Origin: Protoeuglena noctilucae | Taxonomy: Eukaryota | DNA length: 64,000 bases | Direction of reading: 5' to 3' | Assembly: GCA_958009085.1 (NCBI GenBank) | Contig: OY253673.1 | Coordinates: 1,364,001 to 1,428,000 of the forward strand | Shown: in pieces, positions 23,492 through 42,500 of the stretch | Position numbering within the stretch: the stretch's first letter is position 1 | How the letters are laid out: each line of letters begins with the position of its first letter | Notes under the pieces: generated by a model | Told to the model about the DNA's origin: nothing | The model's input: the letters and a program-made list of their open reading frames with translations, nothing else | Databases searched by the model: none | Made by a program: the position numbers and the translations under genes

Positions 23492-26400
23492 ATGGAGGGC
23501 GAGAGGAGCCCGAGTCCCAGGGAGGGATCGGGGCAGGAGAAGCACGCTGGGTCACCCTCGCCCAGGAGGGTGCGGAGCCTCAGCCAGGACCCGCGGAGGT
23601 GCGGCGCCGGGAAAGGGGCTAACAGGCCCGCGATGCGAGCTCTTTGGACTCTGAGCCGTTGCCTTGCAATACTTTGTGGTCTCCTTAGCGCGTCCTGGCG
23701 TTCCTGTGGCGACGCGGCTCCGGGATCGCGCCGCGGCGACCGAACGTCTTGCGCATCGCTGTTCTGTGCTCGCAGCCACACCGTGAGCGCCAAGCGCGTC
23801 GAGCGGTCGCTGACTCCGTCGCGTTCGCTTGAGAAGATCGCGGAGGAGCACGCGGGGGCGGTGGCGGGGCCCGCGCCGGACACGGTCGAGGCCTTGCTGG
23901 ACGACGACGCACGCCCGCCCTCCCCGCGCGACGCCCCGGCCCGCCGCGCCTCCCGGTCCGCGTCGCCCGGCAGATCGAACGGAGAAGTACCGGAGATCTA
24001 CCGCGCGGAGGCCGGCCGCCGCTCCCCGCGGCGCAGGTCCTCTCCCAACGGCCGTGCATCCCCTCCCCCCCGCGTGCCCCGCGGATGGGAGCGCTACTCC
24101 CCCGGACGCGCGCGTCGGGAGCGGCAGGAGCGAATGGAGCGGGGAGACGGGGGAAGGGGCCAGGACCGGGATAGGTGGGGCGGCGATGGCTGGGCGGCAG
24201 CGTCTAATGCAAAGCGAGGTTCTCGTTTAGATGCTGGGTCGTGTTATTGTTGCAATAAGACACAACGGTTTGTTGTCTCTCGCGTGCACAGGGAGGGCGA
24301 GAGGGGCAGGGAGGGGGGCAGGGAGCGCGAGCGGGGCCGTGAAAGGGAGGGCGAGAGAGAGCACGGCAGAGAGAGGGAGCGAGAGAGAGAGCGGGGGCGT
24401 GAGGGCGAGAGGGATCGCGAGAGAGAGCGCGGGAGAGATCGCGAGGATGGCAGGAGGGAGCGCGGTGACGGCCGGCGTGGCAGCGAGCGCGAAGAGGGCG
24501 AGCTGCCAGACAGGGATCGGGGGGATCGGGGGGGCAACGGTGGGGGCACCGGCGGCGGCAGCGACGACCTGGATCGCCTGCGCGCGGACAAGGCCAAGGC
24601 TGGCCCCGCGGGGGGAGTGTACGTGCCCCCCTTCCGGCTCAAGCGTATGATGGCGGAGGCGGCCGACCGCACTTCCGAGCAGTACCAGCGCATGACGTGG
24701 GACGCCCTGCGCAAGGCCATCAACGGAATCGTCAACAAGGTCAACGCCGTTAACATTCGGGAGGTGAGCAAGCGAAGGGGTGGCGAGGAGAGGGACGGGG
24801 TGTGGTTTGCGCATCGGTCACTGACCCATGCGCTCACTCAGTCACGCATGCGCTCACTCACTGATGCACTCACTCACTAGCTCACCCACTAGCTCACTGA
24901 CTCACTCCTTCACCCACTCATCCACCCACCCACCTCCCCTCTCAGATCCTCCCCGAGGTGTTCCGCGAGAACCTCATCCGCGGCCGGGGCCTCCTCTGCC
25001 GCTCGCTGATGAAGTCGCAGCTGGCCAGCCAGGCCTACTCCCCCGTCTACGCCGCGCTCGTCGCCGTCATCAACACGAAGCTGCCGGAGATCGGGGAGCT
25101 GCTCCTGCACCGGCTGCTCCTGCAATTCAAACGGTCCTACCGCCGCAACGACAAGCCGGTGTGCGCGGCCGCGCTGTCGTTCCTAGCTCATCTGACCAAT
25201 CAGGGCGTGGTGCACGAGGTGCTGATACTGGAGATACTGGCGTTGCTGCTGGAGGCCCCGACGGACGACAGCGTGGAGTTGGCGGTGACTTTGACAAAAG
25301 AGGCGGGCGCGACGATGCAGGACGTCGCCCGGCAGGCGCTGGCGGCGGTGCTGGACCGATTCCGGGCCGTGCTGCACGAGGGGAGCATTGGTGAGGGTGG
25401 GGTGGGGTGGTGGGGGGAGGGGTTGTGCTGCACGAGGGGACGATTGGTGAGATGGGGGGGGAGGATAAGTGTTTGCGTGGGTGGAGAGTGGTGGGCGGGG
25501 GGGGGGCGTGTACGATGGTGGGGAGCGTTGTTAGGTTCAACATGTAATTAAAGCCCTCGCATCCCACACCATCAACCCCTATCTCTCTCATCTAATCCCA
25601 GACAAGAAGGTCCAGTACCTGATCGAGGGCCTGCTCGCCAGCGCCCGCGCGGGGTTCGCCGAGTCGGGCCACCCCCCCCGCCCTGCTGGCCTGGATTTGG
25701 TGGAGGAAGACGATCAGATCACGCACGGCGTTACGCTGGACACCAAGTGCGACGCGCAGACGTTGCTGGATGTTTTTAAGGCTGACGATGCGTTTGAGGA
25801 GCACGAGGGGCAGTGGCGGCGCATCCAGGGAGAAATGCTGGGGGGGGGGGAGGGGGAGGTGAGGGGTGTGGAATGGGGGATGGTGAGGGGGAGATGGGTG
25901 GTGGTGGGGGAGGTGAGGAGAGGGGGATTTGCTAGCGGTGGGTGTGGCTTAATGGGCTGACGGTCGATGACGCTCGCTTCACGCCAGCCACGTTGAGCGC
26001 TATGCTGTGCATGAAATGACAGTGAGCCATGCTCTTATTTACATCTTCTTATTGTTATTATATCTTATTATACATTCTCATCGCAGGAGTCTGGTTCTGG
26101 CTCTGAGGAGGAGGGCAGCGACGAGGAGGGGGAGGGGGAGGAGGGGGCGGGCGGGGAGGGCGGTAAGCGCGTGGAGATTGACGACATGACGCAGACCAAC
26201 CTGGTGAGGATGGGCAATAAGTGGGAATGGCGATGATTGTAATGCTCATCAATAGCTACTTCTTACTGCACATCACGCAACGGCAATCTCACTCTAACCC
26301 CCCATCTCATCCCAGGTCAACCTGCGCCGCACCATCTATTTGACCATCATGTCTTCCCTTGACTTTGAGGAGGCGGGGCACAAGCTGATGAAGATTCCAC

Positions 26401-28784
26401 TGTCTCCCGGGCAGGAGATCGAGATGGTCACCATGATTCTGGAATGTGCGAGCCAGGTGAGAGGAGCGTAACTCATTCAGTCACTTTCCCACCTCACTTT
26501 ACTCACCATCTCGCGCGCCACCTCACCTCACCTCCCCCACCACTCACCCCACTCTCACTTATCACATTCCCCCCCCTCACTTCCACCATCACAGGAGAAG
26601 ACCTACAACCGCTTCTACGGCCTGCTGGCCCACCACTCACCCCACTCTCTTGACACCACTTTTCATTACCCACTACTCACTTATAATTGCCTTCTTTCCC
26701 ATCACTCACAGGAGAAGACCTTCAACCGCTTCTACGGCCTGCTGGCCCAGCGCTTCTGCAACCTGCGCCGCGAGTACCAGGGCCAGTTCGAATCGGTGTT
26801 TCAAAAGCAGTTCGGGCTCATCCACCGACTGGCGACGACCAACAAGATCCGGAACGTGGCCAAGTTCTTCGCGCACCTTTTGGCGACCGACGCGATCTCG
26901 TGGGCGGTGCTGGGGGTGGTGCGGGTGACCGAATCCGACACCACCTCCAGCAGCCGCATCTTCCTCAAGTTCCTGTTCGTGGAGCTGTGCGAGGTGAGAG
27001 ATGGGTGTGTGTGTGTATTAATATAGATGGGGAATGTTGTGAATGTTGTGATTGAGCATCTTCCTCAAGTGTGCGTGCGACCATGAAATGACCATAGTCT
27101 CCATCGTTCGCATCGATCACACGTACTCCCCCATCACAACTTGCCACAGGAAATGGGCATGGCATTGCTGAAATCGCGGCTGGATGGTTATCATGGTTAT
27201 CGCTTACATGATTCGCTTTCATCACATTTACCAACCCTCTGTAACACAGGAGATGGGCATGGCATCTTTGAAGTCCCGACTGGAGGAGGCCGACAAGGCA
27301 GAGTGGTTCACGGGGCTGTTCCCGGCCACCAGCGTGCCGGACCTGAGGTTCGCCATCAACTTCTTCTGGAACATCGGGCTCAACTTCCTCACGGGTGAGA
27401 TGATTGTTGTAAACAATAACTGACTTGTTATGGAACATCGGGCTCAACTTCTTGACAGGTGGGGGATGGTGGAGAGGGATTGGGTAATGGCTTACTCGCA
27501 CCCTCACTTACGCAGTCACTCACCCAAATCATCCCTCTTACACTCACTCACTCACCCATACTCTCCCTCCCGCCAGCTGTGCGCAGAGATGCCCTCACTC
27601 ACTCACTCACTCACTCACTCACTCACTCACATACTCATCCCCCCTTTCACAGAGAAGCCCCGCCAGCTCTACGCCGAGCTTCCCAAGCTCCCTCACTCCC
27701 TTCCTCCCTCCCTCCCTCACTCACTCACTCCCTCACTCACATTCTCACTCACTCCCTCACTCACACACATCCTCTTTTCTCATTCACAGAAAAACCTCGC
27801 CAGCTCTACGCCGAGCTGCCCAAGCTGCTTGCCGAGCGCGCCCGCCTCACTGCCCAAGCACAGCCCCAGGCGTCCCCATCCACATCCACATCCACCTCAT
27901 CCTCATCCTCATCATCGTCATCCTCATCCTCATCGTCTTCTTCCTCTGACGATTCGAGTTCTGACACCACCAGCTCTGACACCAGCTCTGACGCCAGCTC
28001 TGGCGCGTCGGAGGAGGGGGGCGGGCGGGGGGGGAGCGGGGGGCAGCGGTGAGGGGTTAGGGAGATTTGGGGCTGGGATGCGATGACAGCATGATTGCGT
28101 GGGTGCAGTGTGATTGCTGCACGCGCGTTGCAAGCAGCGTGGGGGAATGTGCGAGTGCGAGTGCGATGAGTGTATGGATCGTTGGCCTCCCTCTGCCCAT
28201 ACGCCACCCCATTCGCATCTCCAGCCACCTTTTCACCCAATTCACCCAAACTTACCCACTTACCCACCCCATCCCTCTCCCCACCACTCTACCCCCGCAG
28301 TCGCGACGACCGCGCACCCCACGCCACTCATCGCCGCGACCTGCCACCCCCCCCCGAGCACCGCCGTCGGTCGGCAGACAGGGCGGGCGGCGATTATAAG
28401 GGTAATGGTGGCAGTAATGGGAGGGGGGGGAGGTCGAGGTCGGCTGATAGGAGCGGCGGGTGGGGGGGGAGGGGCGGGGAGAGGGATGGGAGGGGTGAGA
28501 GGGAGAGGGGTGGTGGTAGGGATAGGGATGGTGGTTATGAGAGGGAGAGGGAGTGGGGCGGTGGCAGGGATGGTGGGAGGGAGAGGGAGAGGGAGAGGGG
28601 TAGGGATGGTGGTGCTTATGAGAGGGAGAGGCAGAGGGGCGGGTACAGGGGTGAGCGTGAGGGGTGGCGCGGGAGGGAGGGTGCGGATCGCGGCAAGCGT
28701 GAGAGGAGCGGGGAGAGGGAGAGGGAGAGGGAGAGGGAGAGGGAGAGGGAGGGTGGGGATCGGTACAAGCGCAGCAGGGCGTGA
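23492..28784 (+). CDS. CWC22: Pre-mRNA splicing factor CWC22 (MIF4G + MA3 domains, RE/RS-rich termini)
   Basis: [85 protein letters not shown]. Confidence 0.96.
25425..27690 (+). repeat. Intronic copies of CWC22 exon ends with splice sites
   Basis: 25425-25452 copies 25369-25396; 26590-26632 copies 26707-26749; 27056-27070 copies 26956-26970; 27145-27184 copies 27245-27284; 27431-27461 copies 27367-27397; 27648-27690 and 27569-27594 copy 27785-27827. Confidence 0.9.
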
Positions 28785-29379
28785 GGGGTGGAGTGGGGGT
28801 GGGAAAGAGATGGGCGAATGGGAGTTGAGTGGGGATGGATGGGGTGGGTTGGCGTGCGTGGTGGTTGCGAGAGGGGGTGGCTGCGGGAGTTTGAAAGGGG
28901 TGTGACTGGTGCGTGGTTGGCGCGCACTGCGCTGCGGTAGATTTGAATTTCGAAATGCAATGTGCAGCAATACCAGTGAACTGTGAGTTGACGCCCCACA
29001 TGCCACATGCGCATGCGATGGGGCTTCTTTTCACAGCCAACAATCTGCTGTTGATTTCAAACGCAAGAGAACGCTTTCGCACATCTCCCAAACATGCACG
29101 TGTGCTCTTGACATCATGTCCATGCCAGCCCACCCCACTTGCACCCCGCACTGCCCCTCATCAACACCACCCCTCATTTTTTTCCCCCCCTGCGTTTCTT
29201 AGCCCCCTTCCCCCCCTTGCCCGCCCCCTCCTCTCCCTCCGCATCGCCCGCATCCCCATCATTTGTTGGTTCCTGCAAAGCATGACAGAGAGCCACACTC
29301 ACGCTTGCAGTCTCACACTCCAACGTACCCCCCGTTATATAAACATAAACACCCTTTCCAATCCATGCCCATACAACAT

Positions 29380-31647
29380 TCAAGCAAACTGCCGCCAGTA
29401 CTTCGCAACGACTTCATCATCCAACAACACCACACCACCCCTCCTCACCTCCCCCTCCCCCTCCCACGCATCCACCCCCTCCCCCTCCTCCCCCCTCCCC
29501 CGCTTGCCCCTTTTCCCCCTCCTCTCCCTCACAGGCCTCGTCAGCTCCCCATCATCACAAGCCACGGGCCCCACCCCTCCCCCCAGCAGCGCCGCCACTG
29601 ACGTTTCGACGTCAGACCCCTCCACGCGATACAGCACGTTTCGGGACAAAGCAGACTCCACCAGTGCTCGCCAACTGGACTGGGAGGCTCTGGGTATGGG
29701 TGATTGGGGGGGGGGGTGTTAGTGTTGTTACTACTAATAGTACAAGCAGTACTGACCAACGTACTGGTTAGTAATAAAAATAATAATGAGACTGGAAGGA
29801 CATGTGGGGTTTGGAGAGGGGTGGGCAGCGCAGCAATGCACCATTGCAGCCACCACAGCAGCAACTGTTGCCACCAGACAACCGCACCCCAACCACATCC
29901 CCAGCCAAGCCCCCACCCCACATTCATCCATTTCAAAATACGATCATTCCAATTCGCCCCACCTCCCCCAACCAAATCCCACCTGAGCGCGGGCGCGTTG
30001 CCCATCACAATCACCGAGCACCGCCCCCGCGTCAACCCCACGTTCATCCGCCTCTCATCGGCCACGAACCCAATCGCCCCACTGGCGCCCGTTCTGACAG
30101 CGGAGAATATGACCACGTCCTTCTCTCTGCCTTGGTATCCGTCGATGGTGTTGACATCCAGCTCTGATGCGGATGGGCCGAGGTCACGCGATAGGCAGTC
30201 GCGCAAGTGGCGCACTTGGGCCAGGTAGGGGCTGATGACGCCCACGTCGCGGGGTCTGTTGTGTGAGGGGGGGGAGTGAATTGAGTAAGCGTGGTGAGTG
30301 GGGTAGCACTGGAACAGCCCATGCACGCCTACCCCACTGCCCAACAACAACATATATCTTCATACCCCATACCCAATACCCCACACCCCCCGCATCTCTC
30401 ACCTGAGTGTCGGGTAGCACTTGAACAGGTGTTGCAGCAGCCGCACCGCACATGTCGCCTCCGCTCTATTCACCAGCGACGCCCCTGCAGACTGCCGCTC
30501 TTCACTCCCACGCACGTCCCAAAAGGCGAAGGGACCAAGGCAGGGCTCGGAGTGCCAGGGGCGGGAGGAGCGGTCGGCCACGTCTGGATGGGGGGGGGGG
30601 GGGGGGGGGGGTGTGGGTGGTGTGGGGTGGGTGCGGGGTGGGTGTGGGTAGCAGTGTGGGGTGGGCGGAAGAGGTTGTGATGTGCGAGCGTATGGGAGTG
30701 GTGTCAACCATGCCCACTCTCACCTCACCTGTCCTGGCATCTTATCACACCCAACAGACCAAAAGCAACCACCATCCCATCCACCCCCATCACTCACCCG
30801 GCCCGTCCTGCAGCCTGTTCTCGTAAAATGCCCCATATCACTATTAACCATCACACCCATCCATCACAACATTACTGCATAGCTAGTAATACTAGTAATA
30901 CTAACCGTCACCAACAGTCGTCAACCATCACATCCACACCCCCCCCTCTCCCCTCACCCGGCCCGTCCTGCAGCTTGTTCTCGTAAAATGCCTCGGATGG
31001 GAATCTCCGAATCTCCGGGTGCATTCGGAACTGCGTGGTGAGCATGCACACGGGGTGGCCGGCCGCCTCCAGCCGCTTGAACAGCGAGCAGTCGTAGCTG
31101 GGTGTAAGGGGGGTGATTGATGTGGTGCGGATAGCTGACGTTAATAGTCAATCACCCAACCCCTCTCATCTCACCCGTACTTCATCGCACGTCAATCACA
31201 CAATCAATCAATCACCCTTCTCCTCTCACCCGTACTTCTTGGCGGTGTTGGAAATGACGGTGGCGGGCAGCTGGTTAGGATCACCCACCAAATAACACTG
31301 GCGGGCACCCTGGGGGGGAGATGGAGGGGGTGGGAAGGGTGAGTGAGCAATTGCATGCAGGACATGAGACAGACATCTATGATCTCACTAACCCCATCCA
31401 TGCCACCCATGTTATTCGTACTAGCAACTCTTACTATTCACATCGCCCATGTCACTCTCACCTGGCTCAGCGGCACCAGCGTGGATGGCTCCACCGCCTG
31501 TGCTGCCTCATCAATGATCACGACATCAAAGGGGGCCGTCATCTTGGCAAACACCCCCGATCCGGCGAACGACAGCGTGCTGCACACCACCGATGCCTCT
31601 TCCAGGATTGACATTCGGACCTGGTCCTTCTGGGGGAGATGGGGGGG

Positions 31648-31686
<39 letters not shown>

Positions 31687-34600
31687 GAGGTGAGGGCGAG
31701 GGTGGGGGTGACGGGGGAGGGGAGGGTGGTGGGTGAGAGTGGAGTGGGGGAGTGCATGGGACTGTGTCGGGTGGGTGATGGACCGTGGCAACTTGTCACT
31801 GAAGCATACATGCACCATCACACCACCATACCCCCACCCCCTCTCACCTGCGCCCTGGTGAAGTGTAGCATCCGTTTACCCATTACCAACCCCCTCTCAC
31901 CTGCGCCCTCGTGAAGTCGAGCTTCTTGCTATCTACCCACCATCACAACCACCCCACCACTACCCCTACCATCACCCCCTGCACCCCTTATTACCTGCGC
32001 CCTCGTGAAGTCGAGCTCCTTGCCGTCCTTGCCCGTCGGTGCCTTCTGCCCTCCCAGCCGCGCAGCCACGAGGGAGTCCAGTGCCACCGCTTGGACGGAG
32101 TGGTGGGGGTGCACGCCGATGCGGACCAGGCCTGGGGGGGTGGGGGTGAATGAGTGAGGGAATGGGGGAGTGGGGAGGGAGTGAGAGTGAGTGGATGTGT
32201 GAGAGAGAGTTATGCAACTGAGTGCATGTCAACTGTGTCACCCCCATGCAAATCTACACATGTTAAACAACCCCCCCCCTCTCTCCTCTCCCCTCACCGG
32301 GCGTGAAGGCCGTCCCGTCGGGCGCCAGCAGCCCCTGCTGCATCACCCGCACCACCACCTCATCCAAAGCGGAGTTAGACGGCGCGCACACCAACACACG
32401 CGCGCGGGGGCCGCCGGAGCCCACGGGTCTGGGGTCGACGCGCCGGGCCATGCCGAACAGGTCCGCGCCCTCCGTGGCGGTGTGGGGGGAGCTGGGGAGG
32501 GCGTCGCGGGGGTCTGGAGGAGGGGGGAGTGGGGTGAGGGGTGTGGGTGGGGGTGGGGTGATGGGTTGATGGGGTGAGGGAATGAGTTTGCCGCTGTCGC
32601 GATTGCTGCCATCTGCCCACCACATCTCATTTCGTTTGCTCCATCTCATATCATCCCCTCTCATCTCATCATCTCACCGACCGTGTCCTCGTCTGCCCCC
32701 AGCCACGTCATCCCATCTCATCTCATCTCACATCGCCTCATCTCATCTACCACTAATCTCATTTCATCTCATCTCATCTCATCTCATCTCATCTCATCTC
32801 ATTTCTCACCGACCGTGTCCTCGTCCGCCCCCAGCCACGGCGCCGCCCGCCGGTGCAGAGAGACGAATGCGTCGTCATGCGTGCCGTCACTCGCGGAGTT
32901 GGCGGCCGTGGGGGTGGCAGACGAGCGAGCGGAGGGAGCTGCGGGGGGATGGGGGACAAATGCTTGATCGCTCTTAAGGTTTACTAGGTGAATGATAGTT
33001 CTGTGTCTGCGCGCCCTGCTCGTCCCTTTCCATCTCCCGTCACTCAACCAACCCTCTCTTCATCTCTGTTCTCTACCCCCCCCCACCTCAACCCTCCCAT
33101 TATACTACATATAGACACTCCATCACCACCACCACCACCCCCTCACCCTCCTTCCCCACCCCCCCCGCGTGCCCCGCGGGCACGGCGTGCAGCACAATCG
33201 ACAGCAGCGCCATGATCGTGGACGTCTTGCCAGTCCCCGGGGGTCCCTTGATGAGCACTAAGGGGCTGCCGTCCAGGCCTGCCTTGGCTGCCGACAGCTG
33301 GGCGGGGTTGTACTGAGAGAGGGGGGCATGGGTGCTGTGGTGTAAGGATGGAAGCAAAGCAAGAGAGCATTGGCTGCCGACAGCTGGGCCGAGTTGTACT
33401 GAGAGAGGGGGGGGGGAAGAGAGGGGCTGTGCTATGCTATGTGTGCTATGTGTGCTGTGTGTGCTGTGCTGACTGTGACTGACTGTGACTGTGACTGTGA
33501 CTGTGACTGTGACTGCACTGTCTTGTGCTGTGCTGTATCCCTGTCCCTCACCGCCAGCTCCATGGCCTCTGCCATGCCGCGCGGCACGTCCATCGCACGA
33601 CCCGCCGCCTTCCCCGACCCCTCAAGGCGCTTGCCACTGTGTAAGAAGACAAGAGATGGTGTGGATGGGAGGGAAGAGAGGAAAAGTAGTCCAGGCAACA
33701 GAGCGAGAGGGACGAGTGCGGCTGGGAGTGGCAGAGAGTTCGTCATGCCGCGTGCCGCCCTGCAACATGCACCGCCACGCATGCCATCCCATAAACACCC
33801 CATGTTTATTAACACCCAATACACAAACACCCCATCTAACGACGCCCCTCTCCTAACAATAACAACTCTCACCTCATCAAAAGGTCCTTGTACGGGATGG
33901 CGTCGACCCGGTGCAGCGCCACCCACTCGCGCACGATCGTCGACAGGTTGGCCAGCCGCACGCACCAGAAGCCGCAGTGCTTTTCGCCCAGCGCAGCGCG
34001 GACCGACTGGCTGCGCACGCGGCCCGCGCCCTGCGACGACAGTGGGGATCCATGGGGGTGGACACGCACCGCTAGTAACTACCCTATCGTGAGCATACAA
34101 CAGCAACCACGCCCCTCGGTGTCGTCAAAGCACGTCTATTGCGTTGCAACGACTGATATTCCCCCCCCCCCCCCCCCCCCCCCCTCCCCCCCATTCTCTC
34201 CGCTCTCTCGCCTGGTGGGTGTGGTCCGCCAGGCACAGCCGCACCCACGCGCGGTCCCTCCGCAGAGACTCGACCATCCCCAGGGCGTGCACCGCCCCCA
34301 CCTCCCGCACCACCGCGCCGCCGGCCGGGCGCTCCTTGGCCAGCAGGACCAGGTCATTCTCCCTGCAGACGCGGGGCACGGGGGACGGGCACGTGAACAC
34401 GAAGCTCCGTTCACCGGGTCGCGGACGGCGACGCGGCCGCAGAGCGCGTCTGAGCGCAGTAGATAGAAAATAGCTGAGTATTTCGCGATCGTTCGCGCCA
34501 CTCGCTTGAAGTCCTGCGTGTCGCCCGCGTTCATGAGCACCTCCACCGTGTCGAAGCGGTCGCTGGACTCGACCGCCGTCACCACGCACGTCACGGGCTC

Positions 34601-39547: not shown

Positions 39548-42500
39548 TCAGCACACCCCCTTGAAGGTGGTCTGCTTCACGAGCATGCGGTTGGCGATGG
39601 GAGACAGCTCCGGCACTGCCGTGGTGACTGCTGCGCGCCCCTTGGCCACCGTGGCCTCCAGCACATGCACGGCACGCTCGATGTCCGTGGCGAGCTTGTC
39701 GGCCTGGGGAAGGGGATGAGTGGGGGTGGGGTGGGTGGGGTGGGATAGTTACTAGAAAAGTATGCATTCGCTGCTACCTTCACTATTCATCCATGCACAT
39801 ACTGCCACCCTCACCATGCGCACAGTCATTTCAACTATGCAGCCACCCTCACCATGCGGGGTCACACCATCCATGCAATCTGCAGCTCTCACCATCCGCA
39901 GAGTGAGGTCCTCGCGGATGACGGCGCGGAACATGACGATCTCCTCCGCACCCTTGGGGGCCTTGTACGCAGGCACCACCCACCTGGGAGTATGTTAGAA
40001 GCAAGAGGGGTCAGCGAATGCTTGTGCTCACTTCCTCGTTGGTTAATATCACCATCTCATGGACTTGTCATCCATGACCATGTCGCAGCGGTTGGGGGTC
40101 AGCGAATGCGGGCGCGCATCGGCTCTCATCGCTTACCATCCCATGCATCCCATATATCTATCGCTCATCCATAACCATCTCTCCCATCACGTCTCACTCG
40201 CCTGTACGCGAGCAGCTTCTCGGCCAGGTCGAATTCGTCATAACCACGCTTGGTGCCGTCCTCCTTGGGGCTCAGGGAGAAGGCCACCAGGGGGACGCCC
40301 AGGTCCTGGATGTGATGAGAGATGAGAGAGATGAGAGAGATGAGAGAGATGGGAGATATGAATTGAGGCATGGTGTGACATGGGGAGGGTTAGGGGTGGA
40401 GTGCACGAAGAACCCCTCTGTTACTGCTACTACTCCACCCGCTCATCTGTCTCACTAATACTACGCCACTATTACAATTCCACCCCTCAGCCCCCCCCAA
40501 TCAATCACCTGGTGCCTCTGCACAAAGAACCCCGTGGCCAGGAGTCTGTTCGCCAGGTATTCCCTCACGTTCATGAGGTTGCCCATGATGCGCTTGAAGC
40601 CGCTGCGGCCCAGGCGCATCAGCTGGTAGTACTGGGGGGGGGGGGGGGGGGAGGGGAGGGACAGGTATGGTGAGAGTGGTGGGTAGCAATGATACTGATA
40701 CTGCGGAGAGGGGGGGGACAGAAAGGTAAGGTATGGTGCAAGTGGTGATAGTGAGGATAAGTCATTCGCTTTACTCTGCGCTCTGCTCAATCATCCACTC
40801 ACATTACACAGTCATCCACTCTCACCTGGGCTAAGATGGGCCAGGACGGCTTGGAGAAGTTGAGCGTGACGCTCGGCTGGTCGCTGCCCAAGTAGTGCGT
40901 GTGGAACACCAGGCTGTCGGGCAGGTGCGCTGGGGGGAGGACGAAATGTAGTGTTTTGCGGGGTTTTGTAGTGTTTATAGTGTATCAGCCAAGCAAAGGG
41001 ATGAATGATGCGAGGGCCGCGTGACGAGTGCCGAAGCGACAGCACGCTTCGTACGTGTTTGGCCTGTTCGCAAGCACAAACCCCCATCACCCACGCCCCT
41101 GCCACCCATCCCAACCCACCCGCGTCGCGCCACATCACCCAGCCGACGCCGGGGTAGACCAGCCCGTACTTGTGTCCCGACACGTTGATCGACGCCACGC
41201 GCGGCACGCGGAAGTCCCAGGGCAGGTCCGCGTGCACAAAGGGCGCCACGAATCCCCCGGACGCCGCATCCACGTGAATTTCGACGTCCGGGCCGCCCTC
41301 CTCCGCCAGCTTGTCCAGAGCGCGCGAGATGCCGGCGATGTCCTCATATGCGCCGTTGTACGTGCTGCCCAGGATCGCCACCACGCCGATCGTGCGCTCG
41401 TCGACATAATCCTTGACTGCATCGGGGCTCAGCACGAGGCCGGACTGCTCGGAAACGGGGACCAGGCGCGGCTCGACCTCGAAATAGCGCGCGAACTTCT
41501 CCCAACAGATCTGGGCGTTGGACCCCATCACGAGGTTCGGGCGATCGGTGTCGAGGCCCCGGGCGCGCCGGGCCTGCTGCCATCGCATCTTGAAGGCCAG
41601 CCCCGCCAGCATGACGGCCTCGCTCGAGCCGCATGTGGCGGTGCCGGTGCCGGGGTCACGCTCGGGGGCGTTGTACAGGTCCGCCATCATGTTGACGCTG
41701 CGAGGGAGTGAGAGAGAGTGAGTGGGGGAATAGTAGTTACTGCTCACCAACCAACTGTCGCACTCTGTCGAATGCTCAGCCATATGATGCCGCACCATCA
41801 TCTCATAGTGACTTGGCATGACGCAGCCGGTCGTCGTGACTTACTCATCGTGACTATATATCGTCCTCACCATCGGTTGTGGATCTCCGTGGAGGCGGGG
41901 TACTCGTCCATGTCGACCTGGTTGATGTTGAGGCTGAGGGTGGATAGGAACACACAGGTGAGGCATAGCACGTTCAAGGCCAGACGTGCATGGGCGTGCT
42001 GCAGTCACGCATACGGCATGCATTGTTCTCCCAACCACGCACCTGCTCATGATGATCTCGTGGGCCTCCGGTTCCATCCACGTGGTGCAGAAGGACGCCA
42101 GGTTCAAACGCGGGTTGTGATTGAGCATGAGCTCGTCCTGGATGACCTGCGCCGCCACCTTGGCCGGCAACGCGCGGGAGGGGAAGCGGTTCGCCTCGCT
42201 GAGCACGCTCGTGTCGTCGACGAGGCGAGAGGCAAAGGCGGGGTAGATGGCATCTTGCAACGAAAGGCCGGCCTCGATCAGCGAGTCGACGCGGACCAAC
42301 TGCGGTCATTCGAGGCTCGACGATGGTGTGACGACGCCCGGAGCGCGCGACTGCGCCATGGGACTGCGGAAACTTGGCAACTACCGCCACGGACGTGATC
42401 GCGAGTCCCCGATCGTCTTTCTCGCTCTCACCCGCTTGCCATCGGGGCTGCGGACCGAGTCCGATCGCTTGGTGAACGATTTCGTGTGTAACGGCGCTGC

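Follow-up and report, generated by a model that had tools for sequence, protein, structure and literature searches.

Copies of exon edges inside introns of a CWC22 gene and a helicase gene of Protoeuglena noctilucae

The stretch of DNA analysed here, hereafter the window, comprises 64,000 nucleotides (nt) of Protoeuglena noctilucae (GenBank assembly GCA_958009085.1, contig OY253673.1, positions 1,364,001 to 1,428,000 of the forward strand; all coordinates below count from its first letter) and carries two convergent genes whose introns hold partial copies of the edges of neighbouring exons, copies that we call echoes. The first gene lies on the plus strand and encodes CWC22, with the domains MIF4G and MA3; the second lies on the minus strand and encodes a helicase of the Upf1/Sen1 type, labelled SEN1 in the original prediction for this locus, with the domains AAA_11 and AAA_12. 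Across the window G+C is 55–72%. Models of both genes were built from GT/GC–AG sites that preserve a single open frame, giving 23 introns, and RNA contigs from two metatranscriptome runs confirm CWC22 introns 24764–24945, 25391–25601, 26204–26315, 26457–26711, 26994–27249, 27395–27789 and 28049–28300 as well as helicase introns 29690–29982, 30256–30402 and 31098–31229. The original prediction held that the CWC22 echoes differ from the real exons mostly at synonymous positions and that both versions had diverged under coding constraint.

Scanning the window for repeats returned 20 local direct repeats of at least 22 nt, 13 of which lie in the CWC22 and helicase genes, every one of them touching an exon edge; the remaining seven are tandem repeats at 48.8–49.3 kb. 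Each exon edge (55 nt of exon together with 8 nt of intron) was then searched against the intron that adjoins it, and 19 rows were significant relative to 200 shuffles. Five of these, consisting of G-runs, a C-rich stretch or a 9-mer, were left out before counting (CWC22 intron 3 accounts for three, helicase intron 7 and the acceptor side of helicase intron 8 for one each), and the usable set is 14 echo–exon pairs with 122 codons; 11 of the 23 modelled introns carry an echo used in the codon count. Every echo is intronic, lies 55–160 nt from its source edge and keeps its orientation. The copies vary in length (15–44 nt) and usually come with the splice signal, (T)CACAG ahead of acceptor echoes and GGTGAG behind donor echoes, and at two sites two copies stand in a row. 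Nine cores were compared with the whole window on both strands, and each has exactly two matches at an identity of at least 72%.

The comparisons on which the original prediction drew lie in CWC22 introns 6 and 7. Within intron 6 (26994–27249), the echo 27145–27184 repeats the acceptor and start of exon 7 in 33 of 40 letters, with five silent and one replaced codons; its real counterpart, the acceptor CACAG and the first 35 nt of exon 7, is 27245–27284, where the frame is open and where both of our sources of RNA joints, X9 and X11, place the joint. Three echoes lie in intron 7: 27423–27461 copies the end of exon 7 and its donor (real copy, ending in the donor GTG, at 27359–27397; 34 of 39 letters, two silent and two replaced codons), 27646–27689 copies the acceptor and start of exon 8 (real copy 27783–27826; 40 of 44 letters, four silent and no replaced codons), and 27571–27594 is a further copy of the exon 8 start, older and more eroded (20 of 24 letters, two silent and two replaced codons). 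The real edges at both ends of this intron are joined in RNA at 27393>27789, a joint that runs past the echoes. The echo 26589–26632 in intron 5 repeats the acceptor and start of exon 6 (26706–26749) with 43 of 44 letters matching, and has EKTY for the EKTF of the exon. Two further CWC22 echoes are 25425–25451 in intron 2, a copy of the end of exon 2 with its donor (real copy 25369–25395; 25 of 27 letters, Ser to Thr), and the short 27056–27070 in intron 6, an old copy with an internal deletion that matches exon 6 letters 26956–26970 at 15 of 15 positions.

The helicase echoes, all on the minus strand, follow the same plan. The acceptor and start of the exon after intron 6 are repeated at 33367–33406 (real copy 33281–33320; 37 of 40 letters, Pro to Ser and Lys to Asn), and an exon end with its donor is repeated in intron 8 at 32672–32707 (real copy 32804–32839; 35 of 36 letters, one silent codon), in intron 10 by two serial echoes at 31899–31929 and 31846–31864 (real copy 31993–32023; Glu to Lys and one silent codon), in intron 12 at 31169–31183 (real copy 31224–31238) and in intron 13 at 30793–30832 (real copy 30953–30992; 39 of 40 letters, Lys to Arg). 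The echo 30298–30317, in the 3′ half of intron 14, copies an exon end without the donor (real copy 30409–30428; Lys to Gln and one silent codon). At intron 10 the modelled donor (31994, minus strand) reads GTAATA and both echo donors read GTGAGA, the usual form here, so that the presumed donor is the least canonical-looking of the three.

For most pairs, echo and exon share the same DNA. Contigs were built separately from an organism-labelled run (X1) and from an independent marine metagenome of another study (X5), and in both they cover 26165–27586, 30674–31633, 31723–32535 and 32812–33464 with zero differing letters and zero gaps; echo and exon are therefore co-located for the pairs named by echoes 26589, 27056, 27145, 27423, 30793, 31169, 31846/31899 and 33367. 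The pair 25425/25369 is bridged by an X1 contig and not by the X5 pieces listed. A location on one molecule, which the original prediction had proposed to check, is thus borne out for most pairs, the exceptions being 32672/32804, with no bridge among the X5 pieces listed, and 27646/27783. The latter is where an assembly artefact, two haplotypes or strains stitched together serially, would find its foothold, as echo 27646 is enclosed by CTCA microsatellites and is not linked to its exon by any contig listed. Such stitching would have to be repeated at the 14 places in the window that show the same anatomy, and in the pairs that they bridge the contigs of both studies show echo and exon side by side without a difference, which leaves this explanation with next to no probability.

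The echoes are also removed from the mRNA. The joints 25389>25601, 26453>26709 and 26991>27248 in CWC22 omit echoes 25425, 26589 and 27145, respectively, and the joints 31097>31230 and 30255>30403 in the helicase omit echoes 31169 and 30298. No echo splice site is used among the 15 RNA joints listed out of 28, though contigs drop rare forms. For helicase introns 9–13 an arithmetic check only is available: between its pieces at 30403–30579 and 32297–32514, record 24 of X9 has 528 letters against 529 nt of modelled exons, and this agreement leaves no room for use of an echo donor, which would add 55–160 nt.

These joints bear directly on the reading of the echoes as alternative exon ends that are translated now or, as the original prediction suggested, were translated formerly, and that are constrained for that reason. 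Two features would suit it, namely an intron 5 echo acceptor that would extend the exon in frame by 117 nt without a stop, and the excess of silent changes in two of the pairs (see below). The RNA joints listed, from two runs, use the outer sites only, no donor follows the acceptor echoes in the sequence, most of the periods would shift the reading frame (56, 100, 64, 137, 86, 94, 55 and 160 nt, none divisible by three), and near-invariant Phe residues have become Leu in one echo. We consider translated exon ends very improbable. As to the intron 5 acceptor itself, the added segment (26595–26711) would encode a predicted insertion of 39 residues that opens with a near-copy of the first 12 residues of the next exon, and this form is absent among the RNA joints listed.

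We then recounted the changed codons. The original prediction had counted 11 silent among 12 changed codons, and each comparison it cited is exact to the letter: echo 27653 differs from exon 27790 by GAG/GAA, AAG/AAA, CCC/CCT and CTT/CTG, all silent; echo 27150 differs from exon 27250 by five silent changes and one replacement (TTG/TCT); and echo 27431 has TTG ACA for the exon's CTC ACG, both silent. Its reading of EKTY in echo 26595 against EKTF in the exon is equally correct, as is its choice of Tyr as the usual residue. The 12 codons are nevertheless a selective subset, as inside 27145–27827 there are 13 silent and 5 replaced codons. The eight letters preceding the quoted stretch of echo 27423 contain TTC>TTG and TTC>TTA, that is Phe to Leu twice, and the older copy 27571, with its two silent and two replaced codons, had been left out. 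Over all CWC22 echoes the tally is 13 silent to 7 replaced, over the helicase echoes 3 to 5, and over all 14 pairs 16 to 12. The 32 base differences fall on codon positions 1, 2 and 3 as 6, 5 and 21, a third-position excess (21/32) with a binomial P of 1.9e-4 against one third. The pooled ratio of replacement to silent divergence (dN/dS by the Nei–Gojobori method, with the range from a codon bootstrap) is 0.19 (0.09–0.37), so the value near 1 that would have refuted the original prediction is not what the window gives. The ratio is 0.15 for CWC22 and 0.33 for the helicase; it is 0.026 for the two cited acceptor echoes (27145 and 27646) and 0.39 for the other 12 pairs.

To evaluate these counts we simulated two models, in each of which every pair received as many differences as it shows, placed on its real codons. 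In the first, both copies drift freely, and this is rejected on every measure (P ≤ 0.0007 for a silent share of at least 16/28, ≤ 0.0013 for a third-position share of at least 21/32 and ≤ 0.01 for a dN/dS of at most 0.19). In the second, mutations enter both copies equally, which is an assumption about mutation input that may or may not hold, and the exon retains only the synonymous ones. With a GC-to-AT bias of 2–4 and a transition bias of 2–3, settings that were assumed rather than measured, the second model gives P = 0.054–0.087 for the silent share, 0.032–0.067 for the third-position share and 0.08–0.22 for dN/dS. Over all settings, constraint on the exon alone predicts a dN/dS of 0.26–0.49 with wide ranges, and the observed 0.19 has a P of 0.008 to 0.22. 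As the third codon positions of the genes are 83–85% G+C, a GC-to-AT bias would act mainly there, and together with selection on the exon only this would gather the differences at third and silent positions with no constraint on the echo required. The pooled data thus reject neutrality of both copies without clearly needing more than selection on the real exon, and the counts fit constraint on the exon alone within sampling error. In other words, the argument that neutral decay should give mostly replacements stands where both copies are supposed to be neutral, and fails where only the echo is; most of the silent excess is to be expected from selection that acts on nothing but the real exon, and constraint on both versions is unneeded for the pooled data and contradicted by the replacements in several echoes. 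Gene conversion between echo and exon was also considered as a cause of the silent excess and was rejected by reasoning, because conversion should remove silent differences no more slowly than replacements.

Relatives were used to ask which copy had changed. A metagenome scan yielded 80 related loci (401 kb), on which residue states were read by tblastn. No locus among the 80 exceeds 65% amino-acid identity over the complete 94-residue exon, with a few short partial matches at 69–80%, and at this distance the relatives are too far away for silent changes to be polarised; in two protein searches the closest relative among the matches listed is P0121, at 70% identity. At the EKTY/EKTF site, 73 tblastn matches have Tyr in 50, Phe in 22 and Leu in 1, with Tyr in P0121, suggesting that here it was probably the exon that changed and that the echo at 26595 retains the older Tyr. 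The two Phe residues that echo 27423 has altered to Leu are Phe in 73/74 and 70/74 relatives, and replacement of such near-invariant residues indicates that the echoes are not generally under coding constraint. In the youngest echoes, with one to three differences, a single silent change stands beside the replacements F/Y, E>K, K>R, P>S and K>N, and the older of the serial copies are shorter and more diverged. In the protein searches none of the 120 matches listed extends over more than 61% of the frame that reads through echo and exon, and so no relative with the echo was seen there; a repeat scan of the 80 loci gave 90 pairs, those listed being coding tandem repeats by their look. Codon usage offers a second, indirect way to polarise the silent changes (GAA 6 vs GAG 71, AAA 3 vs AAG 26, CCT 2 vs CCC 14, CGA 3 vs CGG 13). 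Judged in this way, about five silent changes (GAA, AAA, CCT, TTG and CGA) would belong to the exon line and most of the others to the echo line, a split that would be about the ratio expected under the exon-only model.

The sequences next to the cores give some indication of how the echoes arose. Global alignment with free end gaps had failed to separate signal from shuffles, and the flanks were therefore compared by local scores against segments of other introns. Homology beyond the core has empirical P values of 0.000, 0.000, 0.029, 0.036, 0.073 and 0.083 in six of ten pairs and of 0.26–0.53 in the other four; for echo 32672 about 60 nt of flank are homologous at about 80% identity. The intron 5 echo is followed by a 17-nt string that is also present 93 nt upstream, and at the junction CCCA (26629 and 26536) is common to the exon, as expected of a slipped copy; microhomology of this kind is seen in this one pair. 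Significant or nearly significant flank homology in 6/10 pairs and this 17-nt repeat with its CCCA point to tandem duplication straddling the boundary. We therefore favour, with moderate assurance, the view that the echoes are local tandem duplications over splice boundaries, of which the outer site is used and the inner copy is a decaying fossil. Such a history would begin with a small tandem duplication, of a period of 55–160 nt, that straddles an exon–intron boundary and would result in two copies of the splice site together with 10–38 nt of exon. Splicing from the outer site would leave the mRNA unchanged, and the inner copy would become part of a lengthened intron. Thereafter purifying selection on the protein would confine change at the real exon edge to silent positions, while the echo would decay freely as a fossil of the older exon sequence. 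Boundary copies may dominate the set because exon-internal duplications would be lethal and low-complexity duplications internal to an intron would be hard to see.

Several results weigh against this view. The cores of young pairs are 97–98% identical, whereas the adjoining part of the intron is only about 78–82% alike or not detectably so, a contrast that decay at a uniform rate would not predict. We tentatively attribute the poor flanks to slippage in G-runs and microsatellites, (GATGA)n and (CTCA)n among them, which would have reshaped the low-complexity intron faster than the core; an origin from a diverged copy would explain the contrast too. In the simulations, constraint on the exon without mutation bias fits poorly (P = 0.006 for the silent share, 0.005 for the third-position share and 0.008 for dN/dS). 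Echoes 27145 and 27646, the CWC22 acceptor echoes with the greatest divergence, have 9 silent changes against 1 replacement, with P ≤ 0.0006 under exon-only constraint, and they differ from the rest (9:1 vs 7:11, one-sided Fisher P = 0.011) in a comparison that was chosen after inspection and covers 11 base differences. One of these two is the echo for which no contig listed bridges the way to its exon (27783), as 27587–27773 was skipped as a repeat. Finally, the whole inference is based on 28 changed codons in a single window.

If these two pairs are taken at face value, the echo cores, at least those in CWC22 introns 6 and 7, might derive from a second version of the gene, be it a deep allele, a homeologue or a paralogue, which had accumulated its differences while under coding constraint and was joined to the first by unequal exchange or by template switching in repair, so that the silent-biased differences were present when the echo was born. 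The ratio of 9 silent to 1 replaced, the dN/dS of 0.026 and its low probability under exon-only constraint would all follow, as would cores far better kept than the adjoining intron, which is what diverged gene copies look like, and three of the four differences at 27653 fall in three successive codons. The copy itself is not to be found in the window, where no second CWC22 sequence matches the echoes on either strand at an identity of at least 72%, and no variant letters are listed for any run, the X1 and X5 DNA contigs over 11.5 kb included, though contigs drop rare variants; the original suggestion that the echoes are fragments of diverged alleles accordingly finds no support here. The silent divergence required would be about 0.4–0.6 per silent site, far in excess of ordinary diversity within a species, and other echoes replace conserved residues, the differences of the young ones being mostly replacements. 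On balance a diverged second copy seems quite unlikely.

The same pairs could be read in terms of RNA rather than protein, with the echoes under selection as elements of the RNA, such as decoy splice sites that would regulate productive splicing of the splicing factor and the RNA helicase, the echo being fixed while the exon drifts silently. The splice signals of the echoes are mostly intact (CACAG, GGTGAG), the cores outlast their flanks, both host genes belong to RNA processing (with MIF4G and MA3 in one, AAA_11 and AAA_12 in the other), and by codon usage 3/4 of the differences at 27653 look as if they arose in the exon. The echoes do change, however, and the older ones are the more decayed (20/24 letters are left in 27571, and 31846 and 27056 are truncated); the RNA joints listed show no use of an echo site, and a short echo is present in an unrelated third gene as well. 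We give decoys a slim chance. For echoes 27145 and 27646 alone, that they are relics of a second CWC22 under protein-level selection, or splice decoys held fixed while the exon drifts, is still unlikely, and their silent excess is a lead, not a result. If one or the other were true, introns would archive or use exon-edge sequence in an undescribed way.

Returning to duplication across splice boundaries as the preferred explanation, the introns themselves have properties that might favour it. In most of the 23 introns (24764–34211) the 5′ half is G-rich and C-poor (C 2–13%) and the 3′ half is C-rich and G-poor, the exceptions being helicase introns 1–3 and CWC22 intron 5. For the two introns checked, the predicted end-to-end fold is better than that of shuffles (z of −3.0 and −3.9) and would bring the splice sites together. 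CWC22 introns 5 and 6 are missing from most relatives, with 50/69 and 52/74 loci contiguous there; P0121 lacks intron 5 and seems to have the position of intron 6 in common. It is a matter of speculation whether young introns that are rich in G-runs and prone to form hairpins favour breaks and slipped repair. Two observations concern low-complexity sequence in the helicase introns: intron 6 (33216–33599) contains a (CACAGT)-type microsatellite with a summed contig depth of 2942 in X1 and 2086 in X5, a motif that is probably widely repeated in the genome or the community, and at 34160–34190 and 30590–30615 the introns contain homopolymers, each of about 25 G or C.

Comparison with known systems places the echoes close to phenomena already described. 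In the Rogers model an intron is reportedly created by tandem duplication of an exon segment that contains AGGT. Like that model, ours has a small tandem duplication as the source of additional splice signals and an mRNA that splicing returns to its original form; it differs in that the intron is already there and grows longer, by a unit that takes in intron sequence, whereas in the Rogers model a new intron comes from exon alone. Tandem exon duplication gives mutually exclusive exons, neighbouring coding copies in one gene for which silent-biased divergence is expected; the echoes differ from these in being exon-edge fragments without a second splice site that are unused in the RNA joints listed.

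The closest parallel is found in newly gained introns of Daphnia pulex, where internal direct repeats, present in 55/90 young introns vs 100/617, are ascribed to staggered double-strand breaks; in the same report 33 introns with 4–12 bp repeats of adjacent exon ends are taken as footprints of staggered breaks, and the repeats are interpreted as a passive way to longer introns (Li et al. 2014, PMC4202315). As far as the sections of that report on repeats go, the two systems have in common intronic direct repeats, copies of adjacent exon letters and, for CWC22 introns 5 and 6, absence from most relatives. The echoes differ from the repeats described in those sections in that they are 15–44 nt long, include the splice signal, lie on the side of the source edge, 55–160 nt inside, and sometimes stand two in series.

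Introners, known from Micromonas and Aureococcus, resemble the present case in their host, a marine, GC-rich, small eukaryote, and in lineage-specific introns whose ends pair in predicted folds. A BLAST comparison among the 23 introns (low-complexity filter on) found no match at E ≤ 1e-4 and, unlike introners, these introns form no sequence family. The echoes are also far longer than the target-site duplications of transposons, and they are variable (15–44 nt) and internal to the intron, with no target-site duplication of fixed length that gives a splice site. In the text of two papers on Micromonas introners that was covered by a search by term (Simmons 2015, PMC4540971; Verhelst 2013, PMC3879977), 'direct repeat' and 'exon sequence' do not occur and 'duplicat' occurs once in passing. 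The work that we found on exon-edge copies inside introns consists of the Daphnia study and the introner papers, and among these there is no account of the echo anatomy. We conclude that the echoes are a variant of known intron-repeat phenomena and not introners, that the silent-site excess is, on present numbers, no evidence for a new process, and that the interest of the locus resides in the anatomy of the echoes and not in the count of silent sites.

If duplications spanning a boundary are common in this lineage, they would provide a simple and directly readable route to intron growth, and each duplication would be a dated fossil of an earlier exon, as the Tyr of the intron 5 echo may be against the Phe of its exon. 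Pairs collected genome-wide would offer an internal measure of neutral against selected change that needs no sister species, and would reveal whether selection tolerates decoy splice sites, removes them or puts them to use.

The third gene mentioned above (minus strand, about 39.5–42 kb) is glutamate-decarboxylase-like, as judged by eye only, and a Pfam search with a 36-residue piece of it gave no match. It has a 15-nt echo at 40402 of an exon edge at 40519, with the single difference TTT/TTC, which is silent, and, near 39790–39890, three serial donor copies of the CATGGTGAG type; a 15-nt repeat at 40007 and 40095 lies in intron only.

Some details of the gene models deserve mention. The helicase introns at 34505 and 34211 (minus strand) need the GC donors AAG|GCGAGT and CAG|GCGAGA for an open frame, and a piece of an X11 RNA contig terminates at 34211. 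At the start of CWC22 intron 3 (25859–25925), three donor-like sites in the same phase, GGGGAG|GTGAGG, GGGATG|GTGAGG and GGGGAG|GTGAGG, lie within a G-run, and which of them serves as donor in the model is inferred. In CWC22 exon 2, contigs of X1, X9 and X11 match only 25316–25350 (35 nt); both of their flanks are unlike the window and identical across the three sources, and they may represent another gene or organism with this stretch in common.

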